Below are positions 11,634-63,497 of a stretch of DNA of 64,000 bases, piece by piece. Position 1 is the stretch's first letter, and every line of letters begins with the position of its first letter. The notes beneath the pieces were generated by a model. That model did no database searches. It saw only the letters and a list, made by a program, of their open reading frames with translations, and was not told the DNA's origin. The position numbers were made by a program, and so were the translations under genes. Origin of the DNA: a virus (taxonomy: Duplodnaviria; Heunggongvirae; Uroviricota; Caudoviricetes). The stretch is taken from the IMG/VR virus record IMGVR_UViG_3300046542_000616; one strand, written 5' to 3'.

Positions 11634-12806
11634 TTAAAGGCCCAACGCGTCTTCGAGCATGTATGCCTTGCTCCATCGCAGGCCAAGCGCCGTCTCAACA
11701 GCGAACACCGTTTTGACGAAGGTGTTTTTATTAATGGGCGTCGTGTTTTTAAGCATCTCATCGATCTCGTTTCGATTGGCGCCCAGCTTTATTTTTTCCG
11801 CGCAGTCATTCTCAGCACCAAGCTCGTCAAAAACCCACTTGAGCTTGATCCGCTCAGGCGGCTTCTGAGCTATCGTCTTGTCTGCGTCGATGCCTTTAAC
11901 CTCGGCTTTTGCGACAACCAGGCCAGACTGAACAATTTCGCAGTGCCAGAAGTCTGCCTTGTAAAATTCTGATTGGGTTGTGTGAGCGGTTGCTTTGGCA
12001 ATCGCCTGAGACAGCGTAGGGGCAGCGGCAATAAGGAATCGAAATCCTTTTGTTAGGTTAGATGAAAATTCGATCCGATATTGGCCGGCAAAACAATCAT
12101 CGCGTAGCCAAGTCTTTTGAGCCTCGCTGAAAAGCTCGGTTTTTCCGGCAATTACCCTGGACTCGTATGTTTCCTGAAGGCATTCAGGCAGTTCGATGTC
12201 CTTTCCGGTCAAGTCGATCAGCCAGCCTATGTCGAAACCTTCATAAGCGTGGAAGTATTGGTAGATGGCTTCTTGCTGATCAGGCGATGATTCGTTGTAC
12301 AGAATTGCAATATCGACCCACCTGACGTTTGCAGTCATTTTTGCTTGGAACATAAAGTAGCTGCATAGCTGATCCAAGCTGGATGGCTGAAATTTTCCAT
12401 GAAGTTCTTCGAAGCGAGCGTCTTCTTTGGCGGCTATTTCTGCAAGCTCAATTTTTGTCACAAATGGAGCGTTATGGATCCTTGGTTTTAAGATTGAGAA
12501 CAGTCGCTCAAAGGTTAGTTCTGACATCGATTTGAGTGGCGCAATTATCTCAGGATGAATGCTGCCAGGAAGGTCGAAGTGGTTCTCGCTCAGACGATCC
12601 AATGCATCGGCGTCGGGCACGACCTCTTCGCCAAACAAGGTGGTGAACCTTGCAGGGTTTCGATAAAACGCACTGTTGATGAATACATGGCTGTATGCGC
12701 TTGGAATTGGCAACATCTCTGGTTTATTTGACATAGTCACTACTTGGATTTGGATTACTTGCATTATCCGACAAGAACATCGATCCGGACAAGAAAACCA
12801 GTGCAT
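11634..12806 (-). CDS. family A tailed protein A1 (likely start 12734)
   Basis: Family A motifs; ends WSKAYMLEDALGL*. Confidence 0.85.
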   Translation of the reverse strand: MHWFSCPDRCSCRIMQVIQIQVVTMSNKPEMLPIPSAYSHVFINSAFYRNPARFTTLFGEEVVPDADALDRLSENHFDLPGSIHPEIIAPLKSMSELTFERLFSILKPRIHNAPFVTKIELAEIAAKEDARFEELHGKFQPSSLDQLCSYFMFQAKMTANVRWVDIAILYNESSPDQQEAIYQYFHAYEGFDIGWLIDLTGKDIELPECLQETYESRVIAGKTELFSEAQKTWLRDDCFAGQYRIEFSSNLTKGFRFLIAAAPTLSQAIAKATAHTTQSEFYKADFWHCEIVQSGLVVAKAEVKGIDADKTIAQKPPERIKLKWVFDELGAENDCAEKIKLGANRNEIDEMLKNTTPINKNTFVKTVFAVETALGLRWSKAYMLEDALGL

Positions 12807-12815
12807 GGTTAAGGC

Positions 12816-13835
12816 TTAAAGGCCCAATTCGTCTTCAAGCCGGCTCACCTTCGACCACTGCATACCAAGTGCTTCTTCGGTGGCATACAGCGTCTTGAGG
12901 AACTCAGTCTTGGTGATGCCGCCCTGGTCGTTCTTTGGGCGAAGGTCAGCATGTCGCCAGGTAATTCTCGGGTCTTTGTCCTTCACGTGAGGGTGATTGC
13001 CGGAGGTGAACTTGACCTCACCCGTTGCAACAAACTGCCCTAGCTGGGCGAGACTGATGTGGGCAAGCGTGCCTTTGAAGTTGATGGCTCCCTGGATGGC
13101 ACGAGCAATTGCAAGCTCCAGTGTCGGTGCTGTGCTGATCAACAAGTCGCGATGATAAGAGTCGACTCCATACACCTCGAATTGGTTAATAACGAAATCC
13201 TCTCTGAGCCACCGGTCTTTGGCCACGTCGAAAGCCTGCTTCTCCCCATTTTCGATTCTGGTTTGCAAGGGCTTGTCGAAGGCGGGCGGGAGGTCGATAG
13301 CCGGCGCCTGGGTCGCTAGAAGGATGGCAAGGTCTCTGTTCTTTACGATACTAAAGTATTGGTACAAAGCCTCCTGCTGGTCGTCTGTGGACGCGTTATA
13401 GAGATCTGCCAGTCGAGCCCATTCGACATAGCGGTTTACTCGGGCGGAGAGGAGCAGATAGCTCATGACCTGGTCTGTCGAAGCAGGATGGGATGCCTCA
13501 GTAATGTTGCCGTATTCCCTGCGCGCCATATCGGCGAGGTTGTCACGGCTGGTGATGATTTCATTTTGAAACTTAGGCTTGAGCACCGAGCAAAGCGCCT
13601 CAAACGTCTCGCCAGTCATGGCGGCCAGCGGAGCCATGATCGTGGTATCGATTTTGTGAGGGCCGTTTTGGTTTGAGTCATCGAAATCGATGTCAGCCAC
13701 CACATGCGGCCCGACCCTTTCTGAGTCCTTATGCTCATCTGGATGATGGCAGTCGAGGTTTTCGTAGAGCAGTCGAATGTACGGATAGGCTTCCACGCTG
13801 GGTGGCGTGATGTGGTTTGGGCTGGTCGATGACAT
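12816..13835 (-). CDS. family A tailed protein A2
   Basis: PPSVEAYPYI ... ends WSKVSRLEDELGL*. Confidence 0.85.
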   Translation of the reverse strand: MSSTSPNHITPPSVEAYPYIRLLYENLDCHHPDEHKDSERVGPHVVADIDFDDSNQNGPHKIDTTIMAPLAAMTGETFEALCSVLKPKFQNEIITSRDNLADMARREYGNITEASHPASTDQVMSYLLLSARVNRYVEWARLADLYNASTDDQQEALYQYFSIVKNRDLAILLATQAPAIDLPPAFDKPLQTRIENGEKQAFDVAKDRWLREDFVINQFEVYGVDSYHRDLLISTAPTLELAIARAIQGAINFKGTLAHISLAQLGQFVATGEVKFTSGNHPHVKDKDPRITWRHADLRPKNDQGGITKTEFLKTLYATEEALGMQWSKVSRLEDELGL

Positions 13836-13910
13836 GGTGAAGCTCCTGGTGGTGCTTTGTTAAGTATCCGTGTTGCGCATACCGCTGGGCAACTTGCTAC
13901 GGGGGATAGG

Positions 13911-15005
13911 TCACAGGCCCAGCGCATCTTCCAGGAGTTGCACCTTGCTCCACTGAACGCCCATGGCTTTCTCAACGGTGAAGAGTGTCTTGATGAAGTC
14001 GTCTTTTTTGAGCGGCGTGGTGAATCTCGACAGGGTCTCGATCTGCTGTTCTGTAAGGTTTTGTGTCCTGATTTTCTCAGCAATTTCCTCCTCACAGCCA
14101 AGTTGATCCACAAGCCACAGGGGTTTCACCGGACGTCTGGCAAAATCGATTAAATGGCTGTCATCACCTATGGACTGAAACCTGGCGCCGGCAATCCTTA
14201 GTCCGCCTTGCGTAATGTCGCAGAAACAGAAGTCAAGCGAGTATTCGGTTTCTTTGAGATGGGCAGTGGCTTTGGCCAATGCCTCGCATAACGTCGGAGC
14301 AGTAGCGACAAGCGTTTTAAATGCGTCATTCACGATGTCTACGCGGTACTGTTGGATATAGGCATCATCGCGCAACCACCGCTGCAGCACCTGGCTGTAG
14401 TGGTAGTCATTGCCGTTATGCACCCTTGTTTCCAATGGCTCGACGAGTGATTCTGGCAGGTCGAATTCCTTGGCCTTGTGCTCAAGTAACCGCGCAAGCT
14501 CGAGCCCATGGTAATGATTGAAGTATTGCCAGATGGCTTGCTGCTGGCCTTTCGCAGATCGATTGTAAAAATCGACAAAATTGCCCCAATGGATATTTTT
14601 CTTTGCGAGCGTTGCTTTCGCAATGGCGAACGACTCAAGCTGCGTTGGCGAATACGTTTCAAGGTGTGGATCAGACTTCAGGAGTTCTACCAGGTCATTT
14701 TGCGAGAAGCGCTGTAGGCTCTCTCGATTCCTGATTTCATAGTCGTCGTATTTAAAGCTTAGGATTGAGGCCAGGGTAGCGAACGTTTCATCGCTCATCG
14801 CTTCTAACGGGGCAATGCGGGTCAAGTCAATGTTGCCTGGCGAACCAAATCGGTTGTGCATGATATTGGAATGCAGGGTGCGATCTCCAGCCGCATCAAG
14901 GCCATCAGCAGTGGTAAAGCCAGTAGGATCACCACGGTAAATGATGTTGATGAAGGGATAATCCCTCAAGGCTGGCTTGATCAGCTCGGTTGGGCCTGCG
15001 ATCAC
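13911..15005 (-). CDS. family A tailed protein A3
   Basis: Ends WSKVQLLEDALGL*. Confidence 0.85.
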   Translation of the reverse strand: MIAGPTELIKPALRDYPFINIIYRGDPTGFTTADGLDAAGDRTLHSNIMHNRFGSPGNIDLTRIAPLEAMSDETFATLASILSFKYDDYEIRNRESLQRFSQNDLVELLKSDPHLETYSPTQLESFAIAKATLAKKNIHWGNFVDFYNRSAKGQQQAIWQYFNHYHGLELARLLEHKAKEFDLPESLVEPLETRVHNGNDYHYSQVLQRWLRDDAYIQQYRVDIVNDAFKTLVATAPTLCEALAKATAHLKETEYSLDFCFCDITQGGLRIAGARFQSIGDDSHLIDFARRPVKPLWLVDQLGCEEEIAEKIRTQNLTEQQIETLSRFTTPLKKDDFIKTLFTVEKAMGVQWSKVQLLEDALGL

Positions 15006-15048
15006 GAAAATGCTCCTTGTGAATTCTTATTGTGGGTATGAGCGTCCA

Positions 15049-16221
15049 TTAAATCCCCAGCGCCTCTTCCATGTGCCTCACCTTGTTCCATTGCACGCCC
15101 AAGGCCTTCTCAACCGCGAACAGGGTCTTGATAAATTCGTTTTTTTTGAGCGGCGTGGTGTACTTAGTCACTGCCCCGATCTCCGCACCAGGCTCATACT
15201 GAACCCACAGTGGCTTGACTGGGCGAGATGCCCAGTCCAAAAGGCGGTCGTCGCTGGAATTGATTGACTCAAGCGTTGCCCAAGCGACTATCCGACCGCC
15301 TTGGAGAATATCGCAGTAGTCGGTATCAATCGGATACTCATTGTCCTTCAGGTACGCTGTCGCTTTGGCAAGTATTTGAGCCAGGGTCGGCGCGGTCGCA
15401 ATCAGTGTTCGGGTCACCGGGTTTACGATGTCAAAGCGGTACTGCTGCTGATACGCATCATCGCGCAACCACTTCTGAAGAACCTGGCTATAGCGGTATT
15501 CATTACCTTTATGCGATCTCGACTCAAACGGCTCAATTAGACAATCGGGGATGGTGAGATCCTTGGCTTTGTGCGCGAGCAGAGATTCAAGCTCAAGACC
15601 GTGATATGTCTCGAAGTATTGGCGGATGGCTTGCTGCTGGTCATCGGCAGACTGGTTGTAGAGGCTAACCAGGTTGCCCCAGTGGACGCTTTTGGAAAAC
15701 GTGGCCCTGGCCAAGAAGTAGGCCTCAAACTGGGCTCGAATGTAGGGCTCACGACCTTCGTCATTTGGCAGGTGGTAACTGCTGTTTTTGTATGTGAAAT
15801 GCTCAAGGCTGCTGCGTTCACGTATGTCCGCGTCGTCACATTTGATGCCGAGGATTGAGGCCAGGGAAGCGAACGTTTCGTCGGTCATGGCACAATAAGG
15901 CGCCAATAGGGTATCAGTGATGTCCGCCGCAGAGCGGAATTGCGAGCTGTTGATCTTAGTTCGTCGCTCAGGATCACCTGCCATGCAGACGTCCTCGTAG
16001 ATGTCATCCTTTCCATCTTCTCCGGCCAGCACACAGTGAACCTTATCCGTAATGAACCGAGTGCGATCCCCTTGAAAGACGATGTTGATGAAGGGGTAGT
16101 TCTTCAAGTCAGGTGCGGTTAACTGGTGGGTGGTCACGTCTGTGTTCCTTGTCTGTTCTTGTCGAAGGGGGCCAGGCATCAAAGCCCAAGCGCATCTTCC
16201 AGCTTGGACACCCGGTTCCAC
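15049..16221 (-). CDS. family A tailed protein A4 (likely GTG start 16137)
   Basis: Ends WNKVRHMEEALGI*. Confidence 0.85.
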   Translation of the reverse strand: MEPGVQAGRCAWALMPGPLRQEQTRNTDVTTHQLTAPDLKNYPFINIVFQGDRTRFITDKVHCVLAGEDGKDDIYEDVCMAGDPERRTKINSSQFRSAADITDTLLAPYCAMTDETFASLASILGIKCDDADIRERSSLEHFTYKNSSYHLPNDEGREPYIRAQFEAYFLARATFSKSVHWGNLVSLYNQSADDQQQAIRQYFETYHGLELESLLAHKAKDLTIPDCLIEPFESRSHKGNEYRYSQVLQKWLRDDAYQQQYRFDIVNPVTRTLIATAPTLAQILAKATAYLKDNEYPIDTDYCDILQGGRIVAWATLESINSSDDRLLDWASRPVKPLWVQYEPGAEIGAVTKYTTPLKKNEFIKTLFAVEKALGVQWNKVRHMEEALGI

Positions 16222-17432
16222 TGAAGGCCCATGGTCTTCTCTACGAAGAACACTGCTTTGGTAAACTCCTTTTCCGAGACCTTTACCGTCTTGCTAAGTC
16301 GGAGATCGATTTCACTGACCTGCTGTTTAAGCTGACCGATGATCAGTGAATCCTTGGTGTTCTCGATTTCCTGCAGGAGCTTTTCGCCCTTAGCCCGCAA
16401 ATTGCCTAGGTCTTCACCCAACTGCTCAAAATTCCACTTAAGCTTGTAGGGGGACATGATCATCTCGAACAAATCGGCATCATCAGGAAAGTCCTTCGCC
16501 ATCTTGAACTCACCTTGAGCCAGGTATTTGCCTTGCTGACGCAGGACGATCAGGTCAGACACCATGGAGCCCGTGGCTTTTTCGACATACGCGGTAGCCT
16601 TGGCAATGGCTTGGTTGAGCGTCGGAGCGGAGCCCAGCAGGAAGATCTCTTGTGTGCTGCGATGATAGGCGTCAACCCTGTATTGCTTGTGCAGGATGTC
16701 TTCACGAACCCATTGTTGCTGTAGATCACTGAATAAAAATTTCTCGCCATCAACGTCCTTGGATTGAAACGTCTCCTGGAGTTTCTCTGGAATGGTAATG
16801 GATACCGGTGGGGTGCTCATCAGCACACTCAGGTCACGGTTCATGCAGCGGAGGAAGTATTGATGAATCGCCTCCTGCTGGCCAGGCTCGGCGCCGTTGT
16901 AGAGCTCGGCAAGATGGCCCCAGTGAATGTCCTGGGTGGTCAGCGCTTTGGACAGGATGTATGTCTGAAGCTGATCGACGGTATACGACTCCTCATCATG
17001 GAATCGATTCAGGTTGCTGGCCGTAATTGTCTCAAGGGTCTGCCGGCTCACGATGTCTGATCCGAAGGCGCGAGGCTGCAGGATTTTCATCAGGCGGGCG
17101 AAGGTTTCGTCTGACATCGCCTGGACGGCGGCCACGGCGGGATCGCTCACGTAGGAGGGTTCCTGAAAAAAGCTGACCTCGAATTCTTCGTCAGCCTTTG
17201 AATTAGGGGACTGATCTTGCTGTATCACGTTGTGCTTGAACGATACGTTGTGATGGAAATGCACGGCATTGATGAACGGATAGGCGTCCAGGCTAGGTAC
17301 GGTAAGGCTGTCCGGTCTGCTCGTGGTCATGTTTGCGATCCTGATCTGGTTTTCCTCATTATCGGCGCTGAGACTGCGCTCGAACAAGCAATGATGCAGG
17401 GGTTTGATGCGACGGCTGCTCATAAGGGACAA
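16179..17432 (-). CDS. family A tailed protein A5 (likely start 17330)
   Basis: Ends WNRVSKLEDALGL*. Confidence 0.85.
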   Translation of the reverse strand: MSLMSSRRIKPLHHCLFERSLSADNEENQIRIANMTTSRPDSLTVPSLDAYPFINAVHFHHNVSFKHNVIQQDQSPNSKADEEFEVSFFQEPSYVSDPAVAAVQAMSDETFARLMKILQPRAFGSDIVSRQTLETITASNLNRFHDEESYTVDQLQTYILSKALTTQDIHWGHLAELYNGAEPGQQEAIHQYFLRCMNRDLSVLMSTPPVSITIPEKLQETFQSKDVDGEKFLFSDLQQQWVREDILHKQYRVDAYHRSTQEIFLLGSAPTLNQAIAKATAYVEKATGSMVSDLIVLRQQGKYLAQGEFKMAKDFPDDADLFEMIMSPYKLKWNFEQLGEDLGNLRAKGEKLLQEIENTKDSLIIGQLKQQVSEIDLRLSKTVKVSEKEFTKAVFFVEKTMGLQWNRVSKLEDALGL

Positions 17433-17455
17433 TACGTTATGGCCTGGAGTGACTC

Positions 17456-17893
17456 ATGGAATTGCAACAGAAGAAATACGGTTATAACTTGATTTTTTGC
17501 GAGCAGCGCAAAGACCAGACATACCATTGGAAAGATATTACGAATTTTGCGGCAGCCGACACCGCTGAGGAAGCTGTAGAAAATTTGTTGAAGCTCATGC
17601 GTGGATCGACGGAGCTAAAAGACATGTTTAAAACGAATGCAACTGTCTTATTAACCAAGTTTGAGTTAATCGGAAGCGGCAAAAAACTACTTAGTTTCGA
17701 AACACGCAGGATGGGAACAGTCGTTGATAATTTGGCAAATATACTTATAAGCGGAAGTATGGTTGGAGATCCTTGGAAAAACATCGTCTTTGACTATGTG
17801 GATCGGGAACTTCTAAGTGCCTTGGTGAAGACATTCCCAGATCAAAAGCAGTTCTTTAAAGGCAAGGTTTTAGAAGGCTCCCTAGGTCTGTGA
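17456..17893 (+). CDS. family B tailed protein B1
   Basis: FAAADTAEEAVENL; ends FKGKVLEGSLGL*. Confidence 0.85.
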   Translation: MELQQKKYGYNLIFCEQRKDQTYHWKDITNFAAADTAEEAVENLLKLMRGSTELKDMFKTNATVLLTKFELIGSGKKLLSFETRRMGTVVDNLANILISGSMVGDPWKNIVFDYVDRELLSALVKTFPDQKQFFKGKVLEGSLGL

Positions 17894-18352
17894 TTGGGCG
17901 TGGAGATAAAAGTTAGGAGCATAGCAGTGGATTATGACAAAAAGAAATTCGGGTTCACAATTTGGTTCCACGACCGGAACAAGAATCTTACGATCAACTG
18001 GTATGATTTTCCGGAATTTGCCTGTGCCGACACGGCGGGCGAGGCTATGGCTAATTTGGTCGATATTCTCGATGGATCTATTCCGTTGTGGCAGTTGCCG
18101 GACAAAGGAAGCAAGGCAGAATTGACCAGGATTGAGTTGCACGGTGATGGCAAGAGGCTGTTCAGGCTCAATGGTCTGAAAGAGGTCAAGAACCAGGCGC
18201 AACCTTGGCTTAAGACCATCGTTACTGTGCAGTGGAAATATACGGTATTCGATGACGTAAATCGCGAGCTCCTGGATGCTTTGGTGCAGACGTTTCCGGA
18301 GCAGCAGCGGATTTTCAAGGGTAAATTTTTGGAAGATGCTCTGGGCCTCTGA
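17894..18352 (+). CDS. family B tailed protein B2
   Basis: Ends FKGKFLEDALGL*. Confidence 0.85.
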   Translation: MGVEIKVRSIAVDYDKKKFGFTIWFHDRNKNLTINWYDFPEFACADTAGEAMANLVDILDGSIPLWQLPDKGSKAELTRIELHGDGKRLFRLNGLKEVKNQAQPWLKTIVTVQWKYTVFDDVNRELLDALVQTFPEQQRIFKGKFLEDALGL

Positions 18353-18382: not shown

Positions 18383-18826
18383 ATGGAAAACGCGAAAAAC
18401 AATTTTGGTTATATATTGGCCTTTAATGAGCGACTGAGTGGCGTAGGAAACCTGATAAAACATCACTACGTCTATGATTTCGCCGCCGCACAAACGGCTG
18501 AGGAAGCTGTCGACAACCTGGCGAAGGTGCTTGAAGGGTCGATTCCGTTTAAGCAGGATCTTGATAAGGGCCTCAGAGACAAAACCAAACTTGTCAGCCT
18601 TGAGTTAATGGGCGATGGCAAGAAGCTGTTCAAATTGCATTCCATTGAAGGAACGGAGAGCTTGTTCGGTTTGCCCTGGTTCAAGAAGCCGAGCTTGAGT
18701 GTTCACTGGGGTTGGATGGAATTTGAGCGCGTGGATCGGAATCTGCTGGATGCCTTGGTGAAGACGTTTCCGGAGCAGAAGCAGATCTTTAAGGGGAAAT
18801 TTCTGGAAGACGCCCTGGGCCTCTGA
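18383..18826 (+). CDS. family B tailed protein B3
   Basis: Ends FKGKFLEDALGL*. Confidence 0.85.
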   Translation: MENAKNNFGYILAFNERLSGVGNLIKHHYVYDFAAAQTAEEAVDNLAKVLEGSIPFKQDLDKGLRDKTKLVSLELMGDGKKLFKLHSIEGTESLFGLPWFKKPSLSVHWGWMEFERVDRNLLDALVKTFPEQKQIFKGKFLEDALGL

Positions 18827-18865: not shown

Positions 18866-19252
18866 ATGAACCAAAGCCGATTTTCTTGCCGGCTGTATTT
18901 TAGCCGAGTGAGCATCACAGGCCGGCGAGACGTCTCCCTGATCCCTAATTACGTAGTCGGTACTTCCCTGGACGAAATTGTCAGCCAAGTGGCCAAGCTG
19001 TTTGATGGTTCCCGCCCGTTAGCAGGTGCAGGAAGCTCGGATGAGGCCCTATTCAGAGTGGTGATCGAAGAGATGGAGGATGAGTTGCTGACTCTTTCGG
19101 TGTTCGACGATGGCGAGCACTGCCTGATCAACTGGGAGGATTCGACATTCCACGGAGTGGGCAAGGAGATGGTCAATGCACTGACAGCAGTCTTTCCAGA
19201 TCATGTGGATCAATTCAAGCGCTTTGCACTGGAAGGGGCGCTCGGTCTCTGA
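18866..19252 (+). CDS. divergent family B tailed protein B4
   Basis: Ends FKRFALEGALGL*; MVNALTAVFPD resembles LLDALVKTFPE. Confidence 0.8.
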   Translation: MNQSRFSCRLYFSRVSITGRRDVSLIPNYVVGTSLDEIVSQVAKLFDGSRPLAGAGSSDEALFRVVIEEMEDELLTLSVFDDGEHCLINWEDSTFHGVGKEMVNALTAVFPDHVDQFKRFALEGALGL

Positions 19253-19278: not shown

Positions 19279-20400
19279 CTACAGCCCCAAAGCATCCTCA
19301 AGGTCATGCACCTTAGACCATTGCAGGCCTAAAGCCTTCTCGACGCGATACACGGCCTCTCGGAAGTCTTTCAGGGGCACTGGGATCGGTTTGTCCAAAA
19401 GCGCCTCCAGCCTGGCGACGTTAGCCATGATTTTATCCTCTTCGCTCCTGAACGTATTGAGCGAGCGCATGGCGTCCTTCTTGATGCCTTGAACGTAGGA
19501 ACGATCCGCACCCAATTGATCAAGGTTCCACTTGAGCTTGGTGATAATGCCTTTGCCGGCAATCACTTCAGCATGGGCCACGGGTTCGGCGAACTGAAGG
19601 ATATCCAGGCGCCATTTGCCAGCCGCATATTCATCATCCTTGAGGCACAGCGAAGCCTTGGCGATGGCCTGGTCAAGCGTCGGCGCACCCCCAATAAGGT
19701 AGCGAGCATTGAGTGACGTGAGCACGATGTCGATGCGGTATTGCTGGTGAAACCGATCCTCTCGAAGCCATTTCTGCATCACCTCACTGAAGTGGTACGC
19801 ATCACCGTTTTTGGCCTTGGTCTGGAATTCCTCCTGAACACATCCTGGCAAGGTGATGGCGGGGCCAGTGGTGCCCAACAGGTCTGGAAGATCAATGTCG
19901 TGATGATTTAAGAAGTATTTCAGGATGGATTCTTGCTGATCGGGGTCTGACTCATTGTATAGGGACGCCACCTTTGCCCACTGCACGCTTTTGGACATGT
20001 CAGCATGGAACATCAGGTAAGTCTGAAGCTGCCCGGCTGTATAGGGCCCGCAATCATCTTCCTCGTTCACGACATAACTCGGCGTTTTTCGGAAGGCCAG
20101 TGCCTCAAGGTCAGCCTTTGTCCTGATTTCAGTGTCGTAGATTGATGGCTTGAGCAGGGTGAAAAGGCTATTGAAAGTGAAGTCGCTCATCGCGAGGAGC
20201 GGCGCAATGTGATGATTGCGAACACTGGCGGGAAAATCGAAGTATTCACTGGCAACTTTATCGTACGAATCGACGTCAGGCGCCCTGGCCTCACCGGTAG
20301 CGTCGGTGAACCCAGCAAAGTCCCTGTGGAACATCACGTTGATGAACGGATAGTCGCTGAGGCTGGGCGGATTCAGGCGGGCAGGGCGCTTGGCGGTCAT
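19279..20400 (-). CDS. family A tailed protein A6
   Basis: PPSLSDYPFI ... ends WSKVHDLEDALGL*. Confidence 0.85.
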   Translation of the reverse strand: MTAKRPARLNPPSLSDYPFINVMFHRDFAGFTDATGEARAPDVDSYDKVASEYFDFPASVRNHHIAPLLAMSDFTFNSLFTLLKPSIYDTEIRTKADLEALAFRKTPSYVVNEEDDCGPYTAGQLQTYLMFHADMSKSVQWAKVASLYNESDPDQQESILKYFLNHHDIDLPDLLGTTGPAITLPGCVQEEFQTKAKNGDAYHFSEVMQKWLREDRFHQQYRIDIVLTSLNARYLIGGAPTLDQAIAKASLCLKDDEYAAGKWRLDILQFAEPVAHAEVIAGKGIITKLKWNLDQLGADRSYVQGIKKDAMRSLNTFRSEEDKIMANVARLEALLDKPIPVPLKDFREAVYRVEKALGLQWSKVHDLEDALGL

Positions 20401-20525: not shown

Positions 20526-20568
20526 CGATTATAGTCAATTATAGACCGATTATAGAGCGACTATAGAC
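20526..20568. repeat. four tandem 10-11 bp repeats overlapping the A7 stop codon
   Basis: cgattatagtc / aattatagac / cgattatagag / cgactatagac. Confidence 0.65.
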
Positions 20569-21616
20569 CAAGGGCATCTTCAAGGAGCAGGCCTTTGTGC
20601 CATTTCACACCAATCGCCTCCTCGGCAATAGCGATGGATTTCTCAAGGCGATCCTTGGTAAAGCCGAGTTTGAGATGATCGGTATCCCAGCGCAGCCTGG
20701 CCGGCAAAGCATGGTAAAACCGGTTTTCTGGATTAACACCAGAGCCAACAATACTGGCCACGGCGAACTCAGTACCACGGTATTGGATACTGAAGTGTCG
20801 AATCGAGTCCTTGGCCTCGATGTTTGCCGTGTACCGGGTAGCCATAGCTATTGCCTCTTCCAGCGACATGGTGGTGGCGATTATGTACGAAGTCTTGCGG
20901 TCATTTCCTCGAAAGCCGACCACGTGGAAGTTGAAGATCATCAGCTGATCGGGAACGAAGCTGGCTGTGAGCTCGTTGTAGGTGCATGGAATACCGTCGA
21001 CGACTCTTGTCTCGAGCACAGGCAGCACGCCTTGTGGCAGGGCATCAGGGCCTGGCATAGTCATCAGATCTTCGAGCGACCGGTTCATGATCCGGCTGAA
21101 GAACTGGTAGATGGCTTCTTGCTGATCAGGTTCCGAAGAATTGTACAGATCGACGACCTCATGCCAATTGACGCAGATTTCCTGGGTCTTGTAGTACAAC
21201 AGGTAGGTCTGGATTTGCTCAGGACTGGCGTTATGAAAGTTATGAGGAAACTCTCTTTCATCATCGTCGAGGTCGGGATTTGCTATTGCATAGGCGAGAT
21301 CGTGCCTGGTCTTGATATTCCAACCTTGGATTTCGTAGCCAAATTTGCCGATCAGCCGCTCGAAGGTCTCATCACTCATGGCAGCAATGGGTGCCATGTG
21401 CTCCAGTTTTACCAATTGTGGCGCAGAAAAATGTTCCCTAGAGTACTTGTAGTCATCGAACGTCCACTTTGAGAGGTCATAAGGAACCAGTGGAATGACT
21501 TTGCTGCCAAATTCACGGGAGTCGTAGAGCATGAAATTGATGAACTGAAAGGCAGAGAGCGGCGGCTTGAACAGCTGGGCGGGCCGTGTCATGTCGAAAT
21601 CCTTGGAATGAAGCAT
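20561..21616 (-). CDS. family A tailed protein A7
   Basis: Ends WHKGLLLEDALGL*. Confidence 0.85.
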   Translation of the reverse strand: MLHSKDFDMTRPAQLFKPPLSAFQFINFMLYDSREFGSKVIPLVPYDLSKWTFDDYKYSREHFSAPQLVKLEHMAPIAAMSDETFERLIGKFGYEIQGWNIKTRHDLAYAIANPDLDDDEREFPHNFHNASPEQIQTYLLYYKTQEICVNWHEVVDLYNSSEPDQQEAIYQFFSRIMNRSLEDLMTMPGPDALPQGVLPVLETRVVDGIPCTYNELTASFVPDQLMIFNFHVVGFRGNDRKTSYIIATTMSLEEAIAMATRYTANIEAKDSIRHFSIQYRGTEFAVASIVGSGVNPENRFYHALPARLRWDTDHLKLGFTKDRLEKSIAIAEEAIGVKWHKGLLLEDALGL

Positions 21617-27146: not shown

Positions 27147-27154
27147 CGCTGACT

Positions 27155-56715: not shown

Positions 56716-58299
56716 ATGAGCGTTCTGCAATACGAAAATTTCCAGGAATCCAATTATTTCTCGGCGATCAATCTAGCCTGCATGCGCCTGCGCGCTGATG
56801 GAGATGTCGGCCCGCTGCGCGAATTGCTGGCAGAGGTGTCCGATGATCTGCGCCAGGAGACGGCGCTGTTCTTGTTCGACTACTCGATGACCGCCCAGTC
56901 CGATCAGCTGTTCGAGTTGTCCAAGGAAATGGGCGTGCTGCAGGTTCCGAGGTTTGAGCGCGACCTTGAGGTTGCGATGACGCTTCGCGACCGCATGTTC
57001 CAAAGCGCCAAGGAGCCGAGTGCCGGTCACCTGGCCCTGTTGCAAGGTTACGCCAAGTTCTTTGGTGAGCCCTATGCTTTCGATTCGATGTCGGCGGTGT
57101 ACAACCTGGAGTTTGCCAAGAATCGCTCGGGCGCCAGGCAATGGCCTACAGGCACTGAACAGCTGGAGACCTATTCGGCGAATCTACAGCTGTTTATCCG
57201 CTTTACCCCAGCCAAGTTCTTATCCAACCCAGACATCGGCAACATCGGTATCCGGCATATTTGCAATCAGTTGACCAACCTGAGAAATGGCGACCCCCTC
57301 GGTGATCACCTCAAGCACTTGGGTGCCCTGAGCTTCGATGATCTGGTGGCCACGGCCAGTGTCATCACATCTGATCCGATGGGGCTCGGACAATACGTGC
57401 ACAGGCAAATCGATGCGGGGGTGCACAAGGGCCTGATTGAGCTGAAGCGGGACTTTTTGCTGAACCTGGAGATCGCGCTCAAGGTCAGGCCGATGGATAC
57501 CGTGCTGACCCTCGCCAGCCTGAGTGAGCCGCTTTTCAGCCGGTTTGTGTCCTGCGATGGCATGCTCAATTACCTGACCAGCCAGTGGATCACCGAAGAC
57601 AACGCGCAGATTCTGGCGGATCAAAGCTTTCTTGATGTGCACGAATTGCTCAATAACCGCCTGTTGTCCAGTCCTTACCTGGCCGGCGTGTTCCAGCGCC
57701 ATGAAGCACTCTCCAGGCCGAACAGTGCTTCGGTCTCGCTGACGATGATGTTGGCCCAACTCAAAGACAAGGGTGTTTATGTCTCCATTTCCTCAAAAAA
57801 TGGCCTGAAGACCCTCGGGGAAAACCTGGAGTTGCTGCGTCACAACCCTGCGCATGCCGAGGTTGTACAGGCTGGTCGAGAGGAGATTGAGAGATCCATT
57901 CGTCGCCGAACCAAGCTTGTGTACGAAAAGCTGGTTAAGGACAAGAAGCACGGTTTGAAGCCTATCGATGCAATAGACAAGGAAGATATGTTCAGGCTGG
58001 TGGTGGTGCGACTGTGTGCCGAACTGCATCAAGAGGGCAAGGCCTATACAGAGGCAGAGCTCAATAACATCAAGCCGATTGGAAGGGTCGTCGATATCGG
58101 CTATGTCGAACTGCACCATAAGGAGGCCCTGCTGGCGCTGGTGTGGGGCTACGATGAGCTTTTCGTCCTTGAAGCTCTGAGTGGCTATAAGCCGGGCATA
58201 AAACCCATGATCGAGCTGGGTGTGCTGGGCAGAAAACATATGAACTTGCTGCCTTTGAAGTATCGCGGGCAGATGCTGGAAAACTCAATGGGCCTCTGA
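56716..58299 (+). CDS. family C tailed protein C1 (527 aa)
   Basis: Paralogue of C2; ends YRGQMLENSMGL*. Confidence 0.85.
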   Translation: MSVLQYENFQESNYFSAINLACMRLRADGDVGPLRELLAEVSDDLRQETALFLFDYSMTAQSDQLFELSKEMGVLQVPRFERDLEVAMTLRDRMFQSAKEPSAGHLALLQGYAKFFGEPYAFDSMSAVYNLEFAKNRSGARQWPTGTEQLETYSANLQLFIRFTPAKFLSNPDIGNIGIRHICNQLTNLRNGDPLGDHLKHLGALSFDDLVATASVITSDPMGLGQYVHRQIDAGVHKGLIELKRDFLLNLEIALKVRPMDTVLTLASLSEPLFSRFVSCDGMLNYLTSQWITEDNAQILADQSFLDVHELLNNRLLSSPYLAGVFQRHEALSRPNSASVSLTMMLAQLKDKGVYVSISSKNGLKTLGENLELLRHNPAHAEVVQAGREEIERSIRRRTKLVYEKLVKDKKHGLKPIDAIDKEDMFRLVVVRLCAELHQEGKAYTEAELNNIKPIGRVVDIGYVELHHKEALLALVWGYDELFVLEALSGYKPGIKPMIELGVLGRKHMNLLPLKYRGQMLENSMGL

Positions 58300-58316
58300 C
58301 CGCCGCCGCGTACGCT

Positions 58317-58350: not shown

Positions 58351-58375
58351 AGGGGTATGACCAAAGGGGTGGCAC

Positions 58376-59998
58376 ATGAGCATTTTCAGGTACGACAATT
58401 TCAGGCAGTGGGAACGGTTTTCGGAGATGACCAAGGGCATCACCCGCATCTGTGGCTCCGACAGTGACGACAGTTTCCTGCGCGCCACCCTGGCCGACCT
58501 GCCGGAAGATCTGGTCGATGAGGCAGGGGCTTACATGCTTGAGTTTGCCATCAAAAGGTTTTCCAGCAAGCTTCTCGGCTTTGTGACCGAGTTCGGCGTC
58601 TTTGAGCGTCCGGGGATGAAAAACAACCTGGACGTCGCGGTGATGATCCGTGACAAGCTGTTCACCAGCGGTGGTGACATTTCTGCTGATAATCCGTACC
58701 TCGGCCTGCTCAAAAAGGCCTCTGCTCACTACGGTGATGCCTTTGCCATCGATTCCATGGATGCGGTTTACGATGACGATATTGCCAAGCTGTATTCCGG
58801 TGCCAGTTTCTTTGCCAGTGGCAAGGAAAAGCTAGATTCCTACACGACAAACCTGAAGCGTCTCATGCTGTTCACCCCGCCCCAGTACCTGAACAGCCGA
58901 ATACTCGGCAACATTGCGATCAAAAACGTCGGCGATCAGATGAGCAACCTCGACAAGGGCGCTCAGCTTGACGAGCACCTTGAGCTCATGGGTCAGCTGT
59001 CTTTCGACGATCTGTCGGCGATTTGCAAAGTGATCAAAGACGATCCTCTAACCCGTGGTGCCTACATGGGCAGGCAAATCGACGCGGCAGTGTGCAAGGA
59101 TCTGCCGGACATGAAATCAGATTTTGTGTTCAACCTCGGTTATGCGCTTGAAGCCAGGCCGATGAATACGCTGATGACCCTGGTCACCATGAAAGAGTCC
59201 GAATTCAGCCTCTTTGTCTCAACGGGTGTGGTGCAGCAATACCTGCTCGGAAAATGGCTTCATGCCGGCAATGCCAAGATCCTTGAGGATCAAAACTTCC
59301 TGGATCTGCATGACCTGTTCAATCAGCGTCTGCTGAGCAATCCGTATTTCAGCCACGTGTTCCAGCGGACAGAGCGCCTGAACAAGCCGAACCATGTGTC
59401 GGTTACCGGCGCCTTAGTGTTTCCGGCTCTCAAGGGCAAGCACCTGGACGTCGAGATGGTCAAGAGCGCGACCGGCTCGAAGAATATCCCTACAGGCGTG
59501 CTCAAGAGCTTTGCGCAGAGCCTCGACCTGATTGCCAAGCACTGCAAGCTGCCGGAGGTTATTCAGGCGGGCCAGGAGATGATCAAGGATCAGCTGGCGC
59601 CCAATCTGATCAAGCTCTACATGCTGATGAGCAAAGACGACATCATCGGCAAGAAGCTTAAGCCGTACGACAGCGTGGACAAGGAGTACCAATTGAAGTT
59701 TGCGGCGATTCGGCTCTGTGCAGAGTTGCATGCCGCGATTCCGGTGAATAACCGTGGCCTTGAAAAGATCAAGCCGATTGAGCATGGAATGGGTGCGATG
59801 GATGCAGGGGTGACTCACAAGGAAGCCTTGCTGGTGCTGGTCAAGACCTATGACGAAGCGACGATTCTCGACGCCCTCAAGGACTACAAGCCCGGCATCA
59901 AGCCGATGATTGAGCTGGGCATCCTGAGTCAGAAGCACATCGCCCTGCTGCCGGTGAAAGATCGCGGCGAACTGCTTGAAAATGCGATGGGGCTTTAA
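58376..59998 (+). CDS. family C tailed protein C2 (540 aa)
   Basis: Ends DRGELLENAMGL*. Confidence 0.85.
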   Translation: MSIFRYDNFRQWERFSEMTKGITRICGSDSDDSFLRATLADLPEDLVDEAGAYMLEFAIKRFSSKLLGFVTEFGVFERPGMKNNLDVAVMIRDKLFTSGGDISADNPYLGLLKKASAHYGDAFAIDSMDAVYDDDIAKLYSGASFFASGKEKLDSYTTNLKRLMLFTPPQYLNSRILGNIAIKNVGDQMSNLDKGAQLDEHLELMGQLSFDDLSAICKVIKDDPLTRGAYMGRQIDAAVCKDLPDMKSDFVFNLGYALEARPMNTLMTLVTMKESEFSLFVSTGVVQQYLLGKWLHAGNAKILEDQNFLDLHDLFNQRLLSNPYFSHVFQRTERLNKPNHVSVTGALVFPALKGKHLDVEMVKSATGSKNIPTGVLKSFAQSLDLIAKHCKLPEVIQAGQEMIKDQLAPNLIKLYMLMSKDDIIGKKLKPYDSVDKEYQLKFAAIRLCAELHAAIPVNNRGLEKIKPIEHGMGAMDAGVTHKEALLVLVKTYDEATILDALKDYKPGIKPMIELGILSQKHIALLPVKDRGELLENAMGL

Positions 59999-60872
59999 GA
60001 TGAAACGTAACGAATTACTCAGACATCTGAGAGACGGGTACACCCATTTCAACTTCCTGGACTTGCCGAAACAGCACTTGGACACCGAAGTCCTTTCGGC
60101 GTGGCTGCAGAAGGGCGGGTACTTCAACGCGATCCCCAAGAAATTCGTGAATGACACGCTGCGCAGATTCGCTGTGAGCCTTAGTCTTAGCGCCCGCCCG
60201 CTGATGGACTATCCGCTCAGGACGATCCAGCCTGAAGATACCCAGTGCTATGAGGAATTGGTTTTCCTGGCGCTTGGTCAATCCCCCTTGAACATGGCTC
60301 ATGTCGACCCGTCCCTGTATGGCGAAGCGTTTTTTCTGAAGGCGCTCGAGATCAACCCAGGCTCCCTGCTGTGTTTTGGCGGTGACCATCCGGTCGCTTC
60401 AATTGACTGGTCTGAAACAATGATTGATGCAGCCGTCAGCAAGGAGCCCAAATACATCCAATTCTTCAAGCCCGATCAGATCAAAAAGAAGTCGCTTGTC
60501 CGCCTGATAACGGGTGGAGAAAACGTCGCCACAGAGCTGGAGGAGGCAGGGCTACTCGGCCTGATGAGTGAGCTGATGCGCGATACCGACTACTGGCCTC
60601 AGCTGATCGATAAGCCGGAGTCGCTCGAGGAGTGCATTGAACTGTTTGAGGAGGCTGATGGGTCGATGGAAAACCTGGCGGTTTGCTGCAAGGCATTCAT
60701 CAGGCAGTATCCGATGGAAACAGTGATACCGTTGATGATTTCAGCCAGTCACCAATCGTTGATCACCAAAGTTTACACGAGCGATGAATTAATCCCTCAC
60801 ATTCGCACTGGGCTGCTCAAGGGCGCCGGAAAAATCAGAGGAAAATTGCTGGAAGAAGGATTGGGGCTCTGA
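59976..60872 (+). CDS. family D tailed protein D1
   Basis: Ends IRGKLLEEGLGL*. Confidence 0.85.
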   Translation: MKMRWGFKMKRNELLRHLRDGYTHFNFLDLPKQHLDTEVLSAWLQKGGYFNAIPKKFVNDTLRRFAVSLSLSARPLMDYPLRTIQPEDTQCYEELVFLALGQSPLNMAHVDPSLYGEAFFLKALEINPGSLLCFGGDHPVASIDWSETMIDAAVSKEPKYIQFFKPDQIKKKSLVRLITGGENVATELEEAGLLGLMSELMRDTDYWPQLIDKPESLEECIELFEEADGSMENLAVCCKAFIRQYPMETVIPLMISASHQSLITKVYTSDELIPHIRTGLLKGAGKIRGKLLEEGLGL

Positions 60873-60874
60873 CC

Positions 60875-61738
60875 ATGACGAGAGATCAATGGATCCAGCG
60901 AATTCATGAAGGGAAAGTCAACATTTTCGGGGATATCCCAAAGAAGCACCAGGACGTTGAGATAGTGTTTCACTGGGTTGCCAGCGGTCAAGGTCATCTG
61001 AGGGAAGTTCCCTTGCACCTGGTAACGGATGACATTCGGATTGAGGCCATGGCGCCCAGGAATAAAGGTCTGACGACGTATTCACTGGTAGCTATCAAGC
61101 CATCACACACCGAGCGCTACGAAGAAATTGCATTGCTCGGCATGAAGGCAAATGCCCGCAATCTGTGGGTGGTGGATAAAAATTTTCACAATAATGATTT
61201 TATGAAAAAAGCTCTCATGGTCAACGGCGATGCCTTGCTGCCATTGTTTGATGAGGATGCCCGCCTCGACGCGATGGACATAGAGATCACCCAGGATCTG
61301 ATCGACCTGGCTGTCTCACGCAGCGCCAGCTACTTCGGCAAATTCAAATCAAGCCAGTTCAGCCCGCACGCGGTGCGCGAGTGCATTAAAAACTGCGAGA
61401 TGGACTATCAGCGCCTGGTCGACATTGGTCAGTTCGATGCCCTGGTCGACGTAATCAAAACTGGTTGGTGGGGCGATCACCTCCCCGAAAAGCCAAGAAA
61501 CCTTTCGCACTGCGCTGTCCAGTTGCTGTCCGACCATGAGGACAAGCTGGTCTATCGCGCTTATGCCAAGACTTTCCCGATACCGGATGTGATTGCATTC
61601 TTGGCCGGGCCTACGCTTCGGCAGGAGGTGTTTGAGATGTACACGGCTAAGGAACTGGCGCCATTCTTGAAGGAAGGCCCCTTGAGCGAAGACAAGGCCT
61701 TCAAGGGCCGGTTACTGGAAAGCGAGCTCGGTCTATGA
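60875..61738 (+). CDS. family D tailed protein D2
   Basis: Ends FKGRLLESELGL*. Confidence 0.85.
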   Translation: MTRDQWIQRIHEGKVNIFGDIPKKHQDVEIVFHWVASGQGHLREVPLHLVTDDIRIEAMAPRNKGLTTYSLVAIKPSHTERYEEIALLGMKANARNLWVVDKNFHNNDFMKKALMVNGDALLPLFDEDARLDAMDIEITQDLIDLAVSRSASYFGKFKSSQFSPHAVRECIKNCEMDYQRLVDIGQFDALVDVIKTGWWGDHLPEKPRNLSHCAVQLLSDHEDKLVYRAYAKTFPIPDVIAFLAGPTLRQEVFEMYTAKELAPFLKEGPLSEDKAFKGRLLESELGL

Positions 61739-62616
61739 ACAATTTCGATGAAATGACCCGTGATCAATTTTTAGTGGCGTTAAGAGCAGACGACGCCTGT
61801 AAATTCATTGAGATCCCAATGACCTACCTGGACAGCGAGGTTATCGCAACCTGGCTTGAGTTCCATGGGGAGCTCCATCAAATCCCGAAGCAGTACGTTG
61901 ACGACGAGCATCGAAGGATTGCCGTTGGCAGAAGCCATGTCCACCAAATGGTCAGAGATTACCCGCTCGCCACCATCAGAAAAGAAGACACCGACTGCTA
62001 TGAGGAGCTGGCGCTCATTGCGCTCAAGCAGTGTGAAATGAACATGAAGCACGTTGATCATGCGCTTTATTCTGAGGATTTCTTCCTGAAGGCCCTGGAA
62101 GCGAATCGGATGGCCATGATGACGTTCCTCACGGGAGCGCCGAAAGCACCCATTGAGTGGACGCAAGCCATGATCGATTCAGCGGTCAGTAAGGACGCTC
62201 GTTACCTGCAATTCTTTTCGAAGGAACAGATCAAGCAGGAGTCCCTTGAGCGTCTTGTTACGGGTGGCGAAAATACCGCCAAGGAGCTCGAAGACGCAGG
62301 CTTGCTCGACCTCATGAGCGACCTTATGCGGCGTGGTTACTGGCCACAGATGGTCAAGCCCTCGTCACTGACAGAGGCCTTGTATTTCATGGTGGACATT
62401 CCTCAGTCGGCTGAAAACCTGAAGATCTATTACAAGGCGTTTGTTCGGTTTCACCCGATAGAAGACGTGCTGCCGATCATGAAATCTCCAGAAATGCAGG
62501 CGATTATGCTTGAAATCTACCGCAGCGATGAACTTATGCCGCACCTGCGGACAGGGTTGCTCAAAGGCGCCAGCAAGGTCAGGGGCAAGCTGCTTGAAGA
62601 GGGGTTAGGTCTATGA
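61735..62616 (+). CDS. family D tailed protein D3
   Basis: Ends VRGKLLEEGLGL*; ATGA coupling. Confidence 0.85.
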   Translation: MNNFDEMTRDQFLVALRADDACKFIEIPMTYLDSEVIATWLEFHGELHQIPKQYVDDEHRRIAVGRSHVHQMVRDYPLATIRKEDTDCYEELALIALKQCEMNMKHVDHALYSEDFFLKALEANRMAMMTFLTGAPKAPIEWTQAMIDSAVSKDARYLQFFSKEQIKQESLERLVTGGENTAKELEDAGLLDLMSDLMRRGYWPQMVKPSSLTEALYFMVDIPQSAENLKIYYKAFVRFHPIEDVLPIMKSPEMQAIMLEIYRSDELMPHLRTGLLKGASKVRGKLLEEGLGL

Positions 62617-63497
62617 GCAACTACCCAACAACCCCCGAGCATTTGATCCAGAACATCGAGAGCGGTGACTACTTCTATGCCTTCCAGGAGATGCCTGAGG
62701 ATCTCTTGAACAAAGCGGTGCTGACCGCCTGGATTAAGGCAGGAGGGGATTTTACGCAAATTCCAAAGCACTACGTGGATGATGATCTGCGCCTGCTGGC
62801 GGTTAGCCAATCGCATGCAGAATTATTCACCAGGGAATACCCCCTCAGTGTGATCGCCAAGCAAGACACCTCGTGTTATGAGGAGTTTGTGTTTCTGGCG
62901 CTAAACCAGTGCTACACGAACATGGAGCACGTTGATCCTGAGGTGTACAGCGAGGCTTTTTTCCTAAAAGCGCTTGAGGTCAATAGCCTGTCCATGCTCG
63001 CGTTTCTGACCGGAAACTTGCAGCGCACCATCGAATGGACTCAGCCTATGATTGATTCGGCGGCCAGCAAGGATTCGAAGTACTTGCGTTTTTTTGACAA
63101 ATCGCAACTGAAAAAAGAGTCCCTGGAGCGCCTGATCACGGAGGGGCTCAGCGATTCAGTGTCCCTTGAGGCAGCCGGGCTGCTCGACCTCATGAGCGAG
63201 TTGATGCGAGGCGGGTACTGGCCTCAGATGATGCACAAGCCGTCCTGTGCCGAGGAAGCCCTGGATCTGCTACTGAACAATCACCATACAGCTGACCACC
63301 TGGCGGTGTACTACCGGGCATTCATACGTTCCAAGCCGATTGAGACCGTACTGCCATTGATGATCAAGCCTGAGCTTCAGCCTCTGATACTGCGGGTATA
63401 CTCGTCAAAAGAATTGATGTCCCCTCTACGCACTGGATTACTTAAAGGCGCGCCGAGAATCAGGGGGAAGCTGCTTGAAGAGGGGTTAGGACTGTGA
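62613..63497 (+). CDS. family D tailed protein D4
   Basis: Ends IRGKLLEEGLGL*; ATGA coupling. Confidence 0.85.
   Translation: MSNYPTTPEHLIQNIESGDYFYAFQEMPEDLLNKAVLTAWIKAGGDFTQIPKHYVDDDLRLLAVSQSHAELFTREYPLSVIAKQDTSCYEEFVFLALNQCYTNMEHVDPEVYSEAFFLKALEVNSLSMLAFLTGNLQRTIEWTQPMIDSAASKDSKYLRFFDKSQLKKESLERLITEGLSDSVSLEAAGLLDLMSELMRGGYWPQMMHKPSCAEEALDLLLNNHHTADHLAVYYRAFIRSKPIETVLPLMIKPELQPLILRVYSSKELMSPLRTGLLKGAPRIRGKLLEEGLGL

Follow-up and report, generated by a model that had tools for sequence, protein, structure and literature searches.

Why should two dozen proteins from four unrelated families end in the same eleven residues? The question is raised by a stretch of DNA of 64,000 nucleotides, IMG/VR record IMGVR_UViG_3300046542_000616 (the window), in which an original prediction, made from the letters alone, had noticed the pattern [KR]-x3-[LM]-E-x2-[LM]-G-[LMI] (the tag) directly before the stop codon of 24 genes. 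The window was analysed by six-frame translation and enumeration of open reading frames (ORFs), with ORF lengths taken from the longest-ORF starts. Replicon-wide censuses of the tag were made on relatives of the window's replicon, which itself was read over 64 kb. Our results support the view that the tail is a portable peptide carried by unrelated protein bodies, and that selection maintains both its sequence and its place at the terminus. As its reader we tentatively propose a plasmid-borne secretion system.

Translating the window in six frames yielded 24 copies of the strict motif, all abutting a stop codon and none lying internally, and the relaxed seven-residue form [LM]Exx[LM]G[LMI] is terminal in 24 of its 25 occurrences. 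From amino-acid composition, about 1e-4 motif-bearing C-termini would be expected by chance among the 74 non-overlapping ORF ends of the window. The carriers agree in number, strictly terminal position, coordinates, strands and lengths (128-540 amino acids, aa) with those first described. The remaining ORFs, said to be without the motif, do indeed lack it, as checked for those of at least 80 aa.

The carriers form two arrays (Table 1). Eighteen lie at 11634-30310, of which 14 belong to family A (minus strand, 330-417 aa) and four to family B (plus strand, 128-152 aa), the latter embedded at 17456-19252 within the family A array. The other six, at 56716-63497, comprise two members of family C (527 and 540 aa) and four of family D (287-298 aa). 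The profile of the tails shows K or R at -11, G or V at -10, E at -6, D or E at -5, and L or M at -3, the last of these in all 24. The codons beneath these residues are scrambled, as had been claimed: all four glycine codons are used at -2, five or six leucine codons at each of -7, -3 and -1, and all three stop codons after the tails (TGA 13, TAA 6, TAG 5). Since the peptide is held while its codons vary, what selection preserves is the amino-acid sequence, not a DNA site.

Unrelated bodies, one tail

To compare the families without their tails, the last 14 residues were cut and the bodies were aligned by BLASTP and by profile-profile comparison with hhalign. No cross-family pair was detected by BLASTP at E<0.01, and hhalign gave a probability below 1% for every pair of families. 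With the tails kept, cross-family alignments that land on the C-termini span only the last 12-32 residues, and the stretch conserved from one family to another is no longer than about 11-16 residues. These comparisons, together with the differing folds described below, bear out the earlier statement that the families share nothing outside the tail, and they go against homology over the full length, which had been named as the result that would undo it.

The two bodies that were modelled with AlphaFold differ in architecture. The family A member is predicted to be a mixed alpha/beta protein with a central sheet (pLDDT 88.9, pTM 0.85), its tail forming a helix from -13 to -4 followed by three non-helical residues. 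The family C member is predicted to be an all-alpha solenoid (pLDDT 86.4) whose last 9 residues have pLDDT below 50. For the family A fold, Foldseek returned nothing from the PDB at E<=0.001, the AFDB clusters gave only uncharacterised matches of low TM-score, and the best match of a wide VIA-align search reached Z 6.3 over 66 residues. Structure searches with the family C fold gave merely weak HEAT/ARM/TPR-like rows, and an ESM Atlas feature search gave no usable match.

Known domains are equally scarce. Ten representatives from the window had nothing above threshold in Pfam and nothing in NCBIfam or PHROGs, and among 50 tagged representatives (these 10 and 40 from the related megaplasmid pPL1) a single Pfam family, DUF4116, rose above threshold. 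By comparison, Pfam families were found in 10 of the 20 untagged window proteins scanned. Tagged proteins have a median length of 384-434 aa, are mildly acidic and contain a transmembrane-like segment in 8% of cases, versus 26-27% of untagged ORFs. Family A has just 15 relatives among 5.8 billion clustered proteins. A family D member (62613..63497) retrieved 54 cluster representatives at 50% identity from 1.84 billion proteins, of which 50 keep the tail; in their alignment Gly(-2) is the top conserved column (1.00), and the mean majority fraction is 0.64 in the tail versus 0.36 in the body. No interleaved untagged partner genes resembling immunity proteins were seen in the tightly packed arrays.

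Plasmid dialects of the tag

Judged by its sequence, the window is part of a Pseudomonas megaplasmid of about 1 Mb belonging to the pMPPla107 family. Family A has two relatives in arrays of conserved gene order, on metagenome contigs from JGI that measure 1.28 and 1.13 Mb. The A/B array recurs, 98% identical, on a JGI contig of 1,282,131 bases, and a distant family A relative is encoded by the 1.17-Mb pPL1 of Pseudomonas silesiensis. The features that define the family were found on related contigs and plasmids: a size of about 1 Mb, a syntenic DotM-DotL block, transfer genes of the MPF_I type and mostly hypothetical genes.

Three plasmids were each scanned whole: pPL1, the plasmid of Pseudomonas sp. 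FeN3W and a 925-kb Vibrio vulnificus megaplasmid. The strict motif of the window has zero copies on pPL1, where about 94 of 1378 ORFs, falling into 48 BLAST clusters, end in G-x-x-F-[SG]-x-[DE]-L-G-[LMI]. The pattern F..[DE]LG[LMI] occurs there 85 times in six frames, 81 of them directly before a stop. On the FeN3W plasmid about 85 of 960 ORFs end in [KR][KR]-x-x-[IVL]-S-x-[DES]-[LF]-x-[LI], with Gly(-2) not conserved. The residue at -3 is L or M in all pPL1 tails and L, F, M or I in all FeN3W tails, a position that was part of the pattern by which both sets were selected. Each plasmid accordingly has a dialect: LE[DE]xLGL in the window, LExDLGL on pBASL58, FSxDLGL on pPL1 (S or G at -6, any residue at -5) and [IVL]Sx[DE][LF]x[LI] on FeN3W. 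The invariant G(-2) and E(-6) of the original prediction hold in the dialect of the window's own plasmid and are not universal on the others. What the dialects have in common is a basic residue or glycine at -11/-10, an acidic residue somewhere from -4 to -6, hydrophobic side chains at -7, -3 and -1, and a carboxyl end that is free.

A census by DNA back-translation, comparing [DE][LMI]G[LMI]-stop with the reversed pattern, yielded 101 versus 13 matches on pPL1, 181 versus 18 on pMPPla107 and 155 versus 19 on pBASL58, but 30 versus 27 on FeN3W, 11 and 10 versus 22 and 17 on two Vibrio megaplasmids, and 1-3 each versus 2-3 on pND6-2, Methylibium RPME01 and a 112-kb P. savastanoi plasmid. The pattern LExx[LM]G[LMI]-stop was found 56 times on pBASL58, versus 4 for its control. 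When the generic core with an acidic residue was required at the terminus, 116 matches were obtained on pPL1 and 76 on FeN3W; shifted 30 residues upstream, the same core gave 9 and 7. Per plasmid, about 85-165 proteins are tagged, or roughly 7-17% of the genes. On two further replicons of this kind, those of PLMAX and P. nitroreducens, the DLGL-type pattern is not in excess, and their dialects may be different ones.

The dialects change in concert. A homologue on FeN3W could be detected for only 18 of the 94 proteins tagged on pPL1, at 20-32% identity, and in 16 of these 18 pairs each partner ends in the dialect of its own plasmid. One dialect that runs across unrelated families on a plasmid and differs between homologues on different plasmids is what a single, co-evolving, plasmid-encoded reader would be expected to produce; the reader is thus probably plasmid-encoded, and the concerted change makes a hub or protease conserved in the host a poor candidate for that role.

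The tag is also specific to plasmids, a conclusion supported by P. fluorescens CFBP13716, in which the chromosome has 39 matches in about 6.95 Mb versus about 163 on the 971-kb pMPCFBP13716, a difference in density of about 30-fold. Many of the 39 chromosomal matches end in TGG and so do not stand at a stop. A scan of related plasmids and a host chromosome had been proposed with the original prediction, and it came out in its favour: internal copies are essentially absent and chromosomal ones far rarer.

Part of the tagged set seems expendable. A spontaneous 368-kb deletion of pMPPla107 (131-499 kb; 440 genes without homologues) has been described after which the plasmid is still kept by its host and still transfers by conjugation (bioRxiv 10.1101/538629). 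Of the 50 forward-strand tag matches listed for pMPPla107, at least 29 fall within that interval, which suggests that many tagged genes are dispensable accessory cargo.

A second class of tail was seen on pPL1, acidic-x(1-4)-P-[GSN]-[LFMI]-COOH, with 21 ORFs versus 1 at an internal control position (for example at pPL1 positions 7804-10602, 25525-27225, 35470-36444 and 159979-161301). It numbers 5 on FeN3W, 4 on the Vibrio plasmid and 0 in the window. This class resembles the tail of SSB (DDDIPF), and it too may serve to bind a hub or to sort proteins. Several proteins of the Vibrio megaplasmids end in SSB-like D-[IL]-P-F.

A candidate type IVB reader and its rivals

The megaplasmids encode a transfer apparatus with a coupling complex of the Dot/Icm kind. 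On pPL1, a 454-aa DotM/IcmP (PF23127, E=2e-37) adjoins an 854-aa DotL-like coupling ATPase (TrwB_AAD_bind and TraG-D_C), and a DotH/IcmK was detected (E=2e-35). The same 31-56-kb block contains T4SS_TraI, a TrbI-like protein, two T2SSE ATPases (DotB-like) and the thin-pilus proteins PilO and secretin. From these genes, the transfer system of pPL1 is classed as IncI/R64-like (MPF_I). The longest contig with another DotM homologue, P0024, has 1,282,131 bases (JGI, Logan), and we read it as the contig that bears the 98%-identical array, the two having the same size and the same sources. Around P0024 on two other contigs the gene order is ParM, a 148-aa ORF, DotM, DotL (854 aa), a 423-aa ORF, ACP, FtsZ and SecA. 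A full-length SecA and an FtsZ/tubulin homologue are unusual on a plasmid, and at locus L069 (1-16906) RecJ, guanylate kinase and an A24 prepilin peptidase are found beside dotM-dotL as well.

A syntenic ParM-x-DotM-x-DotL block was found on pPL1, FeN3W (910 kb), pMPPla107 (972 kb, typed MPF_I) and pBASL58 (904 kb), with DotM 55-59% identical to P0024. For pPL1 and FeN3W the value is about 59% each, versus the 20-32% of their tagged pairs. Further carriers of this Pseudomonas type of DotM, in a set of species-representative genomes, are Pseudomonas sp. PLMAX (pPLMAXa, 949 kb), P. serbica IT-P366 (a 1.06-Mb plasmid), P. fluorescens (pMPCFBP13716, 971 kb) and P. nitroreducens S00179 (a 450-kb contig). 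The original pMPPla107 report describes a complete Dot/Icm-related type IV secretion system (T4SS), states that effector secretion was unknown, and counts 776 of 1080 genes as hypothetical (Baltrus 2011, PMC3136466). A MOBP relaxase (PF03432) was not found on four megaplasmids. MOB-suite calls pPL1, pMPPla107, pBASL58 and FeN3W all non-mobilizable, yet pMPPla107 conjugates in the laboratory (bioRxiv 10.1101/538629).

We tentatively favour, with confidence somewhat short of even, the reading that the tail is a recruitment signal for the plasmid's I-type, Dot/Icm-like type IVB secretion system (T4BSS). The tag would be a short linear signal, requiring a free C-terminus, that marks soluble, fast-evolving accessory proteins. 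Its reader would be the DotL-DotM coupling complex of the plasmid's own type IVB system, which would send the tagged proteins out through the conjugation channel; the cells that receive them would be mating recipients and possibly eukaryotic grazers or hosts. That the cargo inhibits recipient defences or manipulates the host is a guess. The tagged proteins are soluble, fast-diverging, without known domains and partly dispensable, and for these reasons look like cargo. In Legionella, DotM is the receptor for acidic C-terminal effector signals, and the DotM proteins of other species have been proposed to possess co-evolved interfaces that suit other tails (Meir 2018, PMC5802825). The fullest form of the idea, which we regard as rather unlikely, is an 'effectorome' of a conjugative plasmid: an 11-residue code read by DotM-DotL, by which some 85-165 proteins would be injected ahead of or with the 1-Mb DNA into recipients or grazers, a private dialect ensuring that each plasmid loads its own cargo.

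A number of observations weigh against the T4BSS reading. The 925-kb Vibrio vulnificus megaplasmid, which has a DotM-DotL block at 27% identity, has no tag class (and 0 homologues of the 94 tagged pPL1 proteins), nor does the tag occur on small I-type plasmids or on Methylibium RPME01, all with DotM/DotL; DotM and DotL are therefore not sufficient for the tag. The original prediction had proposed T4SS substrates, and one half of that idea stood, in that a Dot/Icm-like system (DotM, a DotL-like protein, DotH/IcmK, TraI) belongs to the replicon family; the expected co-occurrence failed in Vibrio and the small I-type plasmids. The Dot/Icm signals known so far are degenerate, with Glu abundant from -10 to -17, whereas the tag is near-invariant, basic at -11 and without a Glu run, its acidic residues being no more than one or two, located between -4 and -6. 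We know of no conjugative T4SS that moves more than 100 proteins. No homologue of IcmS (PF12608) was found, in a search lacking a positive control. Other readers have ample room: 174 untagged ORFs that pPL1 and FeN3W have in common and the Vibrio plasmid lacks are candidates, and any of the more than 700 uncharacterised plasmid genes may encode the true one. The link from the tag to a T4SS is itself one that we infer from sequence. A complex prediction with the cytoplasmic domain of DotM (P0024 120-452, 25-row alignment) and 40-residue tails (24-row) gave a score of 0.01, which carries no weight either way. As side observations on the Vibrio replicons, the megaplasmids of about 0.9 Mb (NZ_CP015514.1, the FORC_036 plasmid; L075) have a ParM-x-DotM-small ORF-DotL block and are apparently distant relatives.

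The tail might instead dock its carriers on a non-secretory cytoplasmic hub or compartment encoded by the plasmid, such as a scaffold, a partition or replication body or an organelle-like structure, in the manner of the SSB tail, of clamp-binding motifs or of PTS1-type targeting. We consider this unlikely, while granting that concerted dialects need only a plasmid-encoded reader and no T4SS, that DotM/DotL-bearing relatives without the tag fit it, and that cell-biology genes as unusual as ParM, FtsZ/tubulin, SecA and ACP lie near dotML. Hundreds of unknown proteins, with the 174 conserved, untagged, Pseudomonas-clade-specific ORFs among them, could supply the hub, and the clamp-binding tail of E. 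coli Pol IV ends in LGL-COOH. Set against this, the tag lacks the Q-L of clamp-binding motifs, a beta-clamp domain (DNA_pol3_beta) was not found on pPL1, and neither encapsulin (PF04454, Linocin_M18; positive controls worked) nor PDZ_2 (PF13180, a single PDZ model) was present on four megaplasmids, on which no sheath protein of a type VI secretion system was found either. There is also no obvious logic in a hub that binds 85-165 fast-evolving, often dispensable ORFans.

Two further explanations are a degron and a tail without a reader. As a degron or stability tag, read by host ClpXP, ClpAP, Lon, FtsH or Prc or by a plasmid factor, the tail would hold down a costly accessory proteome or make its presence conditional. 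Like ssrA-type and other C-terminal degrons, the tag requires that a non-polar C-terminus be free, and it is predicted to be flexible or exposed in the family C model. Carriage of the megaplasmid is costly (PMC6482414). We hold a degron to be improbable nonetheless: host proteases are conserved across Pseudomonas, so that neither drift per plasmid nor the loss of Gly on FeN3W would be expected; strong conservation out to -11 exceeds the length of a typical C-terminal degron; and it is hard to see why over 100 diversifying genes should be retained just for their products to be degraded. That the tail has no reader at all, being left over from common ancestry or from a mobile 3' cassette that spread from gene to gene by copying, would suit the tandem paralog arrays and rampant duplication; it scarcely fits scrambled codons under a held peptide, the lack of internal copies, the different folds that carry the tail or the concerted change of dialect, it is contradicted by the conservation of tail over body with invariant Gly(-2) in family D, and we give it hardly any credence. 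The remaining probability goes to readers or roles outside T4BSS, hub, degron and absence of function.

The window and its untagged genes

Sequencing runs containing DNA of the window are rhizosphere metagenomes, of which some may be the very sample it came from, and no RNA run is among those listed. A megablast of positions 40000-52000 against PLSDB gave no match, relatives being too diverged at the DNA level. Scans of the window for tRNAs and Rfam families gave nothing. Its identifiable untagged genes are plasmid-like (Table 1) and include two different replication initiators, TrfA-like and Rep3, 45 kb apart.

The family A array is broken at 21748-22572 (minus strand) by two untagged genes, with ORFs of 82 and 174 aa. 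The counterpart of the 82-aa ORF in loci L001 and L002 is annotated as PapB (PF03333), a fimbrial-type regulator, and the ORF may regulate the array. Directly downstream of the last family A gene lies an untagged 263-aa ORF without a Pfam match (10822-11613, minus strand) whose position is kept, by a 263-aa gene in L002-L004 and a 252-aa gene call in L001.

Table 1. Tagged and untagged genes of the window
Feature	Position	Strand	Length	Tail	Remark
Family A paralog	11634..12806	-	390 aa	KAYMLEDALGL	longest ORF
Family A paralog	12816..13835	-	339 aa	KVSRLEDELGL	
Family A paralog	13911..15005	-	364 aa	KVQLLEDALGL	
Family A paralog	15049..16221	-	390 aa	KVRHMEEALGI	
Family A paralog	16179..17432	-	417 aa	RVSKLEDALGL	longest ORF; true start probably further in
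Family B small protein	17456..17893	+	145 aa	KGKVLEGSLGL	
Family B small protein	17894..18352	+	152 aa	KGKFLEDALGL	counterpart gene in related locus L001
Family B small protein	18383..18826	+	147 aa	KGKFLEDALGL	
Family B small protein	18866..19252	+	128 aa	KRFALEGALGL	
Family A paralog	19279..20400	-	373 aa	KVHDLEDALGL	modelled member
Family A paralog	20561..21616	-	351 aa	KGLLLEDALGL	
Family A paralog	22646..23665	-	339 aa	KVQKLEDELGL	
Family A paralog	23723..24778	-	351 aa	KVQRLEDELGM	
Family A paralog	24775..25923	-	382 aa	KAQLLEDALGL	
Family A paralog	26043..27146	-	367 aa	KVQKLEDDLGL	
Family A paralog	27155..28183	-	342 aa	KGRHLEDDLGM	
Family A paralog	28230..29291	-	353 aa	KVHNLEDALGL	
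Family A paralog	29318..30310	-	330 aa	KVHDLEDALGL	
Family C	56716..58299	+	527 aa	RGQMLENSMGL	modelled member
Family C paralog	58376..59998	+	540 aa	RGELLENAMGL	41% identical to 56716..58299 product
Family D	59976..60872	+	298 aa	RGKLLEEGLGL	
Family D	60875..61738	+	287 aa	KGRLLESELGL	weak sub-threshold DUF4116 match
Family D	61735..62616	+	293 aa	RGKLLEEGLGL	translationally coupled
Family D	62613..63497	+	294 aa	RGKLLEEGLGL	
HipA kinase toxin	764-2083	-			untagged; small overlapping upstream ORF (pair 764-2430)
TrfA-like initiator	5942-7057	-			untagged
SocA/Panacea-domain antitoxin	42247-42777	-			untagged
Rep3 initiator (WH1+WH2)	51526-52437	+			untagged
RNase II/R	54021-55973				untagged

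Significance and comparison with known systems

The plasmid pMPPla107 is an experimentally tractable, self-transmissible 1-Mb replicon, about three quarters of whose genes have no known function, and the tag offers a sequence rule that groups roughly 7-17% of the genes of such a megaplasmid as one functional class. Whether its Dot/Icm-like T4SS secretes effectors has been an explicit question since 2011 (PMC3136466). Should a T4BSS indeed read the tag, no compact, portable and near-deterministic signal of the type IVB kind would have preceded it; it would be useful as a delivery tag and for effector prediction, and its carriers would be the first large set of proteins assigned as cargo to a conjugation machine. 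If its reader is something other than a T4BSS, the tag would represent a bacterial protein-addressing system of an unknown and categorically new sort. No published description of the tag was met in full-text literature searches or in the available passages of the pMPPla107 papers, which bears out the earlier remark that no described system matches it.

Several known systems resemble it in part. Homogeneous polyimmunity loci (Zhang, Aravind et al. 2012) likewise consist of diverged paralogs that stand in long tandem rows on a mobile element, but they have no known terminal tag across unrelated families, and their toxin partners were not seen here. The XVIPCD of X-Tfe effectors (Xanthomonadales type IVA systems) and the BID of Bartonella effectors are alike in being a shared C-terminal module that marks diverse effectors for one coupling protein. 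They differ in being folded domains of about 100-140 aa read by VirD4, and adjacent untagged immunity genes were not seen in the tag arrays. A module of this kind was rejected for the tag, since the shared conservation covers about 11-16 residues and no PF02534-type VirD4 was found on pPL1.

Hub-binding tails are closer in size. Those known include the SSB C-terminus (DDDIPF), the beta-clamp motifs QL[SD]LF and Pol IV's QLVLGL-COOH; like the tag, the SSB and clamp tails are short, with a hydrophobic end, acidic residues nearby and a free C-terminus. Clamp motifs differ by a Gln-Leu that is absent from -6/-5 of the tag, and the carriers of the tag are ORFans, not enzymes of DNA metabolism. A beta-clamp-binding motif was rejected on that missing Q-L and on the lack of DNA_pol3_beta on pPL1; an encapsulin cargo peptide was set aside as well, PF04454 being absent from the four megaplasmids.

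The Dot/Icm systems of Legionella and Coxiella offer the nearest likeness. Their signal lies in the last 10-20 residues, needs the C-terminus and combines a hydrophobic -3 with neighbouring acidic residues. The proteins marked by it number in the hundreds and are unrelated, fast-evolving and for the most part domain-less; it is read in part by DotM, and a DotM-DotL pair is encoded by the megaplasmid replicon family as well. Of the Dot/Icm features, the terminal position, the hydrophobic residue known from RalF at -3/-4 (here at -3) and the DotL-DotM pair were found here, whereas the E-block and the low isoelectric point were not. The tag is a near-invariant short motif and not a composition bias, lacks the E-block at -10 to -17 and comes in plasmid dialects. 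The machine, too, is different: judged from its genes, it is an I-type T4SS that serves conjugation and has a thin pilus like that of R64. Conjugative T4SSs, the I-type included, can deliver plasmid proteins that aid establishment to recipients, among them the IncI1 Sog primase and the PsiB, SSB and ParA of the F plasmid. These are a handful of proteins with no common motif; here a single tail is carried by roughly 7-17% of the genes of a 1-Mb plasmid.

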